The notes beneath the pieces are model-generated. The model searched no databases. It saw nothing but the letters and a program-made list of their open reading frames with translations, and was not told the origin of the DNA. The translations under genes and the position numbers were made by a program. A DNA stretch of 64,000 nucleotides from Escherichia coli (GTDB lineage Bacteria > Pseudomonadota > Gammaproteobacteria > Enterobacterales > Enterobacteriaceae), in the NCBI RefSeq assembly GCF_030013595.1, contig NZ_CP122768.1; one strand, given 5' to 3'. Below are positions 11,761 to 13,593 of this stretch, piece after piece; position 1 is the first letter of the stretch; each line of letters opens with the position of its first letter.

Positions 11761-13593
11761 CTACCAAAATCGGGTATAGCCAACATCGTGATTTATATCA
11801 ATGCCACTGGAGCGTGTTTCCGTAACCCGCATATCTGGTGGCATATTTATAAATGATACCTTGATCTCACCATCAACTTTTGGCGCGGTAGCTTTATTAA
11901 TCATGAAGGGATTCGAGCCTGTGGCATCGGAGGCGTTGTTTGCCTGAGCCGGATCCACCGCCGGATAAGGAGTGTATCCCCGTGCCGGTATTCCCGTCCC
12001 ATAAGCATCATAAGCACCCGCGCCCCACTGCGCCGAGTTAAGGGCATCGACCGTGTCACCGGAACTGTCGGTAAACCATTCAATAATCGGCTTCAGCTTA
12101 TCCCACATATCCTGAAACCACTTAACAACCGGTCCCCAGTTATTGATCACCATCCCCAGCGGCGACCTGGCAAAAACCTTCTTCAGAAGTTCCCAGCCAG
12201 CCTCAAAATAAGGACTAATGGTTTCCCAGAGTTTCTTAAAATAAGGTCCGACAACATCCCAGTTAGTGATAATTAATCCCGCAGCCAGGGCAATCGCCAT
12301 CGCAATCATGCCAATCGGCGTCATCGACATGATCCTGCTGACGATACTGATGGCACTGCCCACGCCCATCAATCCCAGTTTCAGAATCGCAAGACCGGCA
12401 GCAAGCCCGACGACGCCGCGAATAACCCGGGGATTTTCATCCGCAAACTTCGTGAATTTTTCCCCCAACTCCCCCAGCCATTGCGTGATATTTTTAGCGT
12501 CACCAGAAAATGCGCCGCCAATAGCTGCAAGACCGTTAGTTGCGGTCCCCGTCATTGCCTCCCACAGGTTGGACAGCGTACCAAGCTGTGCCTGAACACG
12601 TTTATTCAGGCTGGCCTGTTTATTCATCTTCTGCTGGATCTGATCGTAACCATCCTTTCCTTTATCGATCAGAGCATTGACCACCTGAAGGGTTTCGGCA
12701 TCATCACCAAATATTGCCTTAAGTACACCTGTTCGCTTAACGTCGGTCAGTTTTCGCAGCTTTGCCAGTTGCTTAAACATGTTATCAAGACCGCCAAAAC
12801 TCCCTTTGCCGTCAGTAAAATCGAGCTACACTCCGAGTTTCTGGCGGGCCATGACTTTATTGACGTCCCTGATTTTCTTAACGCTTAATCCGGACTGGAT
12901 AACTTTTCGCAGGGCATTACCTGCCGACTCCCCGTTCATCCCCATCTGATCCATCATGACGCTGATAGGGGCAAGGCTCTGTGCAGCCTGAAGACCGTCC
13001 TTGTTCACCATCTTCAGAACAGAACTGGTTTTAGTGAAGAAGGACAACATGTTGGTATCGTCAACGCCCAGATAAAACGCCTTCTGGATAGTGTCGAACA
13101 GCCCCATCATGTCTTCTGACGCCGTTCCGGTAGCATCCTGCATCTTTGCAGCAAACTCAGCAGCCGCTTCCGGTGTTTTTTTCAGTTGTACCGCAAGATA
13201 AGCTGTCGCTTTACCCACACCACCCAGAATGTTTTCTGCCGGGATCCCCTGACGCACCAGCATCTGCATCATGTTCTGGAAATCAGCCGTTGTACCGGGT
13301 AGCTGGTTACCTAGGCCAATAGCCAGTTTATTGATGTCCTGAAAGCTCTTTCCGACCTCACCGTTCGCATCCATCATGGCAACTTTCAGCCCGGTGGCGG
13401 CGTTTTCCTGATCGGCATAAGATTTCAGGGAAAGCGTCAGACCCGCAGCCAGTCCGCCACCAAGCGCCAGCCCACCCTGTGACGCTTCTTCCGCCTGGCG
13501 TTTAAATCCCCGGATTTTCTTTTGCATTTTCGACAGCTCGGGAGAAAGCCTGTCGACACCGGTGATCAACGCCTTAAGCTCAAATTCAGCCAT
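11761..13593 (-). pseudogene. tail tape measure protein interrupted by an in-frame amber codon
   Basis: Track ORFs 12826..13593 and 11761..12780 are in the same frame, separated by TAG at 12826-12828 plus 15 sense codons. Confidence 0.75.

Follow-up and report, generated by a model that had tools for sequence, protein, structure and literature searches.

We found that the tail tape-measure gene (TMP) of an e14/SfV-like prophage at icd in Escherichia coli is interrupted by one in-frame amber codon and that this gene, a family member by descent, is to judge from its sequence a pseudogene as it stands. The stretch of DNA that was analyzed, referred to as the window, comprises 64,000 nucleotides of contig NZ_CP122768.1. 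The amber codon itself is an already known kind of thing, a plain nonsense pseudogene, and the overall picture is very probably one of ordinary stepwise prophage decay with no regulatory or recoding device. The prophage in the window appears to be crippled at least twice, by the amber codon in the TMP gene and by a deletion that is linked to an IS10-type element. The TMP locus contains the following features:

11761..13593, minus strand: tail tape-measure gene (TMP), pseudogenized orthologue of SfV orf14; 610 codons and the terminal stop, broken by a single TAG
12826..12828, minus strand: amber codon TAG, codon 256; ancestral CAG (Gln) according to alignment with E. coli PF9285 and phage SfV and codon reconstruction
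12826..13593, minus strand: N-terminal TMP fragment, ORF of 255 aa plus TAG, ending inside PF10145
11761..12780, minus strand: C-terminal TMP fragment, ORF of 339 aa that begins with the next in-frame ATG downstream of the TAG
13735..14004, minus strand: tail assembly chaperone gene (PF10109, 89 aa), which immediately precedes TMP
13747..13753, minus strand: slippery heptamer T_TTT_TTC, in the correct phase within the chaperone gene

Translation of the minus strand between 11761 and 13593 yields 611 codons including the terminal stop and exactly one internal stop, where the plus strand reads CTA, so that the single uninterrupted frame of a full-length tape-measure gene is broken at codon 256. 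The 255-aa and the 339-aa ORF lie in the same frame, and the ATG of the second is located 45 nt past the TAG, with 15 sense codons (LDFTDGKGSFGGLDN) in between. The first-pass annotation, which had described two same-frame ORFs parted by this TAG and 15 sense codons, is therefore exact to the base. It had also explained the interruption by a point nonsense mutation and not by a deletion, and had suggested a comparison with homologous prophages. This comparison agrees with the explanation, as codon 256 is CAG in E. coli PF9285 and phage SfV where the window reads TAG, and the gap-free alignments over the whole 1,833 bp revealed no indel in the gene relative to its homologues. Both observations together identify the TAG as a C>T transition on the coding strand, which converted Gln256 to amber. 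As 154 of the 610 TMP codons are only one base change away from a stop, a nonsense mutation in this gene is unremarkable.

The assignment of the gene as a tape-measure gene is based on domain matches, nucleotide identity and gene order. With Gln256 restored, residues 88-296 match PF10145 (PhageMin_Tail) over the full model with an i-Evalue of 1.1e-26, and PHROGs 17727 and 28, both named 'tail length tape measure protein', match with E-values of 6e-168 and 6e-120, respectively. At the nucleotide level, the gene aligns without gaps and with 96-96.6% identity to phages SKA5, SfI, SfV, vB_EcoM-689R6 and SfII (five distinct phages, eight records), all of which are annotated with one uninterrupted tape-measure gene. 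Among 5,426 complete E. coli genomes, 918 carry the gene, and copies in E. coli prophages reach up to 98.7% nucleotide identity. Since the ungapped alignment to intact tape-measure genes covers 1,833 bp, a chance juxtaposition of two ORFs can be dismissed. The position of the gene is also the expected one: it follows the tail assembly chaperone gene with its -1 frameshift site and precedes the baseplate hub genes, in the order sheath, tube, 89-aa chaperone, TMP, 176-aa ORF, hub/DNA-circulation gene (9752-11077) and baseplate genes, which is that of an SfV/Mu-type contractile tail. A -1 shift at the slippery heptamer would generate a 139-aa chaperone fusion that ends at 13586-13588 and overlaps the TMP start. 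A slippery site with such a fusion upstream of the tape-measure gene is the usual and conserved G/GT-type arrangement. The 176-aa ORF between TMP and hub gene (PHROG 5485, 11139-11669, minus strand) is also found in E. coli relatives, and at position 11356 it carries a nonsynonymous SNP that is private to the window (Q versus L in all sister loci).

The first 24 kb of the window match E. coli prophages of the e14/SfV-like type at about 97.4%, and an SfV-type late module in combination with a tyrosine integrase that adjoins icd at its 3' end identifies the element as an e14/SfV-like lambdoid prophage at icd. Its further features and the adjoining attachment gene are:

3304..24023, minus strand: e14/SfV-like prophage, late region spanning HNH to pinE (tblastn with the proteins of the relative L003, and annotation)
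3885-5294, genes on both strands: small invertible tail-fibre/assembly segment
24247..25575, plus strand: IS10-type element of 1,329 bp with a 402-aa IS4-family transposase and imperfect terminal inverted repeats
25576..26519, plus strand: e14-type integrase, N-terminally truncated, 304 of 380 aa left
26633..27883, minus strand: icd (isocitrate dehydrogenase), attachment gene of e14-type prophages

The late region encodes HNH, terminase, portal, protease, capsid, connector, sheath, tube, TMP, baseplate and tail-fibre proteins as well as pinE. When the L003 proteins were compared with the window by tblastn, all late genes from HNH to ymfQ and pinE were found at full length with the exception of TMP, those from HNH to ymfQ also without internal stops, and the tail-fibre genes matched at 40-67% identity only. 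The window also contains a second prophage on the minus strand, which begins directly after potB (38532-39395) and extends from about 39600 to at least 61000. It contains tail-fibre genes, a contractile-tail sheath gene (46038-47513) and a probable tape-measure gene of 552 aa (43386-45044) together with lambda-type major head, protease/scaffold, portal and large-terminase genes (54017-60834); in the window, potB is not followed by potC.

The second lesion of the e14/SfV-like prophage becomes apparent by comparison with a complete sister prophage at icd on the NCTC contig UFZA01000001.1 (L024, 3.43 Mb), for which the exact truncated TMP product is on record. The gene order in L024 is 380-aa integrase, xis, gam/bet/exo, SIR2 gene, repressor/cro, O/P, nin region, Q, holin/lysozyme/Rz, bor, HNH and terminase, and in the sister strains the full 380-aa integrase and xis adjoin icd. 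Mapped against L024, the IS10-type element replaces 16,912 bp of prophage in the window (L024 1237-18148), and the sequences on both sides are 100% identical (window 25576-26811 to L024 1-1236, window 21693-24246 to L024 18149-20702). Deleted from the window are the N-terminus of the integrase, xis, gam/bet/exo, the SIR2 gene, repressor/cro, O/P, the nin region, Q, the lysis genes and bor. The element is a common mobile element, 100% identical to copies on many plasmids whose annotation gave it no name, and we take it to be IS10 on account of its length of 1,329 bp, its 402-aa IS4-family transposase with the ATG at base 108 and its terminal repeats in comparison with those of IS10. The 9 bp on either side of the element differ, which argues for an IS-adjacent deletion and against a simple insertion. 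In the assembly L014 (GCA_026549125.1), a contig with the same flank begins a few bases inside the IS10 junction, and this contig start is compatible with the same IS10 deletion.

Some further observations concern the lost segment and the junctions of the IS10-type element. The SIR2-domain gene of L024 (535 aa, L024 5674-7281) is located next to the repressor and a DUF3800 gene lies ahead of the holin; both fall within the 16.9 kb absent from the window and are possible anti-phage cargo. The outside end of the element (24247-24360) faces the HNH and terminase genes of the minus-strand late operon. The outward promoter pOUT of IS10 reads from the outside end of the element, and it is predicted that pOUT could transcribe the late operon, which is now without Q, constitutively. 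This e14-type integrase is also found truncated in other lineages of E. coli, there by a different element with rve/IS3-type neighbouring ORFs. The junctions in L009 (9981), L010 (688) and L011 (139) are only 9-10 bp away from the IS10 junction (window 25576-25585). The site could be a recurrent insertion target or the near-coincidence could be fortuitous.

The amber allele was found in nine further loci (L004-L008, L017, L019, L021 and L022), which derive from separate NCBI assemblies and from Logan assemblies of distinct sequencing runs. Over 11-13 kb, each locus shows 1-4 SNPs relative to the window, with the exception of L006 (37 mismatches). The latter locus (GCA_021649415.1) contains a recombination patch of 34 SNPs in the capsid and protease genes, equivalent to window 18289-19554. 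Furthermore, the exact 255-aa TMP product is recorded as STE02252.1 and on 39 contigs (65 index blocks). To determine the frequency of the allele, a 41-mer centred on the mutated base was used in megablast with a 28-base exact word, a setting under which only sequences that share the central base of the 41-mer can match. The TAG 41-mer gave no match in the 5,426 complete genomes of E. coli, where the best match over 251 bp was 250/251. The CAG control 41-mer matched 123 of the 5,426, which confirms that the method works. An exact-match scan of species-representative genomes with a TAG 35-mer gave no hit in a set that does not include this clone and is silent on the reality of the allele. In a literature search on amber codons or other early stops in tape-measure genes of E. 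coli prophages, no account of this particular allele was found.

To place the carriers in their chromosomal background, the 10.9-kb flank with the integrase remnant, icd, purB, phoPQ and pepT was compared between the window and seven assemblies, six with the full integrase (L031-L036) and one that starts at the IS10 junction (L014). The flanks are about 99.99% identical, with one mismatch to the window in six of the seven assemblies and two in L035 over an overlap of 9.1 kb. For comparison, E. coli of other lineages that share the 304-aa integrase ORF have a flank about 98.1% identical to the window. In all likelihood, the amber allele is thus fixed in one E. coli clone and has been passed on vertically. 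Horizontal spread of the amber prophage was considered and rejected on the basis of the almost identical chromosomal flanks of the carriers. All other visible late, lysis and early genes are intact in the sister isolates. The persistence of the amber allele in an intact-looking prophage over many isolates is compatible with neutrality, which is thereby not proven.

Additional lesions point to prophage decay. The IS10 deletion, the truncation of the integrase and a frameshift in a cargo gene are further inactivating lesions in the element, as they are typical for a decaying prophage. The cargo gene (window 2-1233, minus strand) corresponds to a 488-aa hypothetical protein (WP_000723924.1, strain 0H26) and is distributed over two frames with the split near 874-883; it extends beyond the window start and is apparently frameshifted and a further pseudogene. 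In L008 (SRR19716081), a second nonsense mutation, Y125*, is located in the hub/DNA-circulation gene at a position equivalent to window 10703. Within the amber clade, coding SNPs comprise seven nonsynonymous or nonsense changes versus two synonymous ones, compared with 27 nonsynonymous and 55 synonymous changes between the window and the non-amber relative L018 (Fisher p=0.012 for the difference to the within-clade ratio). Both within-clade SNPs of the TMP gene downstream of the amber codon (n=2; K453N and A437D) are nonsynonymous. Recent SNPs within a clone are enriched for nonsynonymous changes even under selection, and the excess, which comprises only nine changes, is weakly consistent with relaxed selection or decay.

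Taken together, we propose that a spontaneous C>T transition turned CAG (Gln-256) into an amber codon in the TMP gene of the e14/SfV-like prophage at icd. Release factor 1 would end translation at the UAG and a 255-aa fragment would result, which would stop inside the PF10145 core and be missing the last 355 residues, hydrophobic segments included. The tape-measure protein of tailed phages is required to start polymerization of the tail tube on the baseplate and sets the length of the tube. From this role, the amber allele is expected to abolish tail assembly, and an induced sister prophage would yield DNA-filled heads without tails. Later, in the sublineage of the window, the insertion of IS10 and the adjacent 16.9-kb deletion eliminated most of the early and the lysis region. 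This order of events follows from L024, which is a complete prophage and already contains the amber codon: the amber came first and the IS10-linked deletion afterwards. In the strain of the window not even such heads would form, since it has lost Q together with the late promoter region, the genes for lysis, replication and immunity, xis and part of int. The first-pass annotation had stated that the stop would block tail assembly; such a block is indeed to be expected, but the point is moot in this genome after the IS10-linked deletion, a second lesion that the first-pass annotation had overlooked. For annotation, this means that a single tape-measure pseudogene, internal stop included, should take the place of the two ORFs, and that the region should be labelled a defective remnant of an e14/SfV-like prophage. 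In addition, public data reveal the order of decay for one E. coli clone, with nonsense in a tail gene as the first step and the IS10-linked deletion as the second.

Three other explanations of the internal stop have to be weighed against decay. A sequencing or assembly error, with C as the true base and an intact TMP gene, comes to mind because errors most often take the form of single-base differences. The first-pass annotation would have given way to reads with a sense codon at this position, and as a proxy for such reads we used the nine loci from independent assemblies. All of them contain the same TAG, which speaks against a sequencing error, as do the 39 contigs with the exact 255-aa product, and we regard an error as next to impossible. 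A programmed feature, either a regulated read-through stop or a split tape measure with functional 255-aa and 339-aa products, is hardly more credible and strikes us as highly improbable. Both ORFs are long and annotated publicly as separate proteins (STE02251.1 in the case of the C-terminal fragment), and an in-frame ATG follows 45 nt after the stop. Nevertheless, the stop is limited to one clone, with no match of the TAG 41-mer in the complete genomes even though about 900 of them carry the gene. The five phage relatives are uninterrupted, and a stop conserved among homologues, as expected for a recoding site, is not seen, since all other homologues checked have CAG. The stop also cuts the PF10145 domain. 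Between the TAG and the ATG at 12780 no in-frame start codon was found, and a well-placed Shine-Dalgarno sequence ahead of this ATG is missing: the sole purine-rich motif, AAGGGAG, lies about 18-24 nt upstream, which is too distant for this function. On these grounds, a restart or split gene as a designed feature was rejected.

It is also conceivable that a suppressor tRNA of the host, an option raised in the first-pass annotation, or near-cognate read-through makes the amber codon at position 256 leaky, and that the sister prophage is weakly infectious. Since the codon arose from CAG, insertion of Gln by tRNA-Gln would restore the wild-type protein, few copies of TMP suffice per tail, and basal read-through of UAG could still yield traces of the full-length product. 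The base directly 3' of the TAG is C, and a C after the stop codon has been found to be a weaker termination context in E. coli studies. Moreover, the sister isolates retain every other visible late, lysis and early gene. On the other hand, there is no tRNA gene in the window or in 21.7-kb stretches of two amber-carrying sister prophages (ARAGORN; window, L003 and L017-L019), and all examined carriers share one chromosomal background with no sign of horizontal spread. Damage is also still accruing, as indicated by Y125* in L008 and the IS10 deletion in the window, where suppression would be no rescue because Q and the lysis and replication genes are gone. Overall, leakiness or suppression of either kind seems very unlikely to us. 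The more specific version, a naturally leaky conditional allele in which tRNA-Gln reads through UAG-C and the sisters release a few infectious particles, is very unlikely; if true, it would account for the other genes being intact across many isolates. We therefore favour prophage decay with a plain nonsense mutation as its first visible step.

The closest known relatives of the TMP locus are the phages SfV (orf14, AAL89423.1), SfI, SfII and SKA5, which resemble the window in the TMP gene (96-96.6% nucleotide identity) and in the order sheath-tube-chaperone-TMP-hub. In contrast to the window with its amber codon, these SfV-type phages have an uninterrupted TMP gene with CAG at codon 256 and are inducible and plaque-forming. 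A further difference is that in SfV orf14 is directly followed by orf15, whereas the window contains the additional 176-aa ORF at this position. SfI, SfV and e14 have been described as close relatives in their morphogenesis modules, and ST64B is among those sharing the SfV-type module (PMC3636060). The cryptic prophage e14 of K-12 is like the prophage of the window in its icd site, the adjoining e14-type integrase, genes of the ymfQ/ymfR/pinE type and its state as a defective remnant; for e14 and its icd site, PMC12803456 lists Mehta et al. (2004) and Hill et al. (1989) among its references. In its losses, the window is the mirror image of K-12 e14, with a late operon that is complete apart from the amber codon in TMP and with the early and lysis region deleted. 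The e14 prophage of K-12 retained the integrase and the early region and lost most of the head and tail genes.

Amber codons in phage tail genes are also well known from the laboratory, for example the conditional-lethal mutants in lambda H. Like the allele described here, the lambda H amber mutants have a UAG in the tape-measure gene and a truncated product, and they form no tails without a suppressor. Unlike the laboratory ambers, the allele in the window arose in nature and became fixed in a wild clone, with no sign of a suppressor host or conditional selection. The Salmonella prophage ST64B is another instructive case: Figueroa-Bossi and Bossi reportedly showed in 2004 that a frameshift in a tail gene of this prophage reverts and gives rise to active phage. 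ST64B resembles the NCTC sister strain in having an SfV-type late module and one small lesion in a tail gene of an otherwise complete prophage. The lesion is a frameshift in ST64B and a nonsense codon in the E. coli clone, and in the window the 16.9-kb deletion makes reversion irrelevant.
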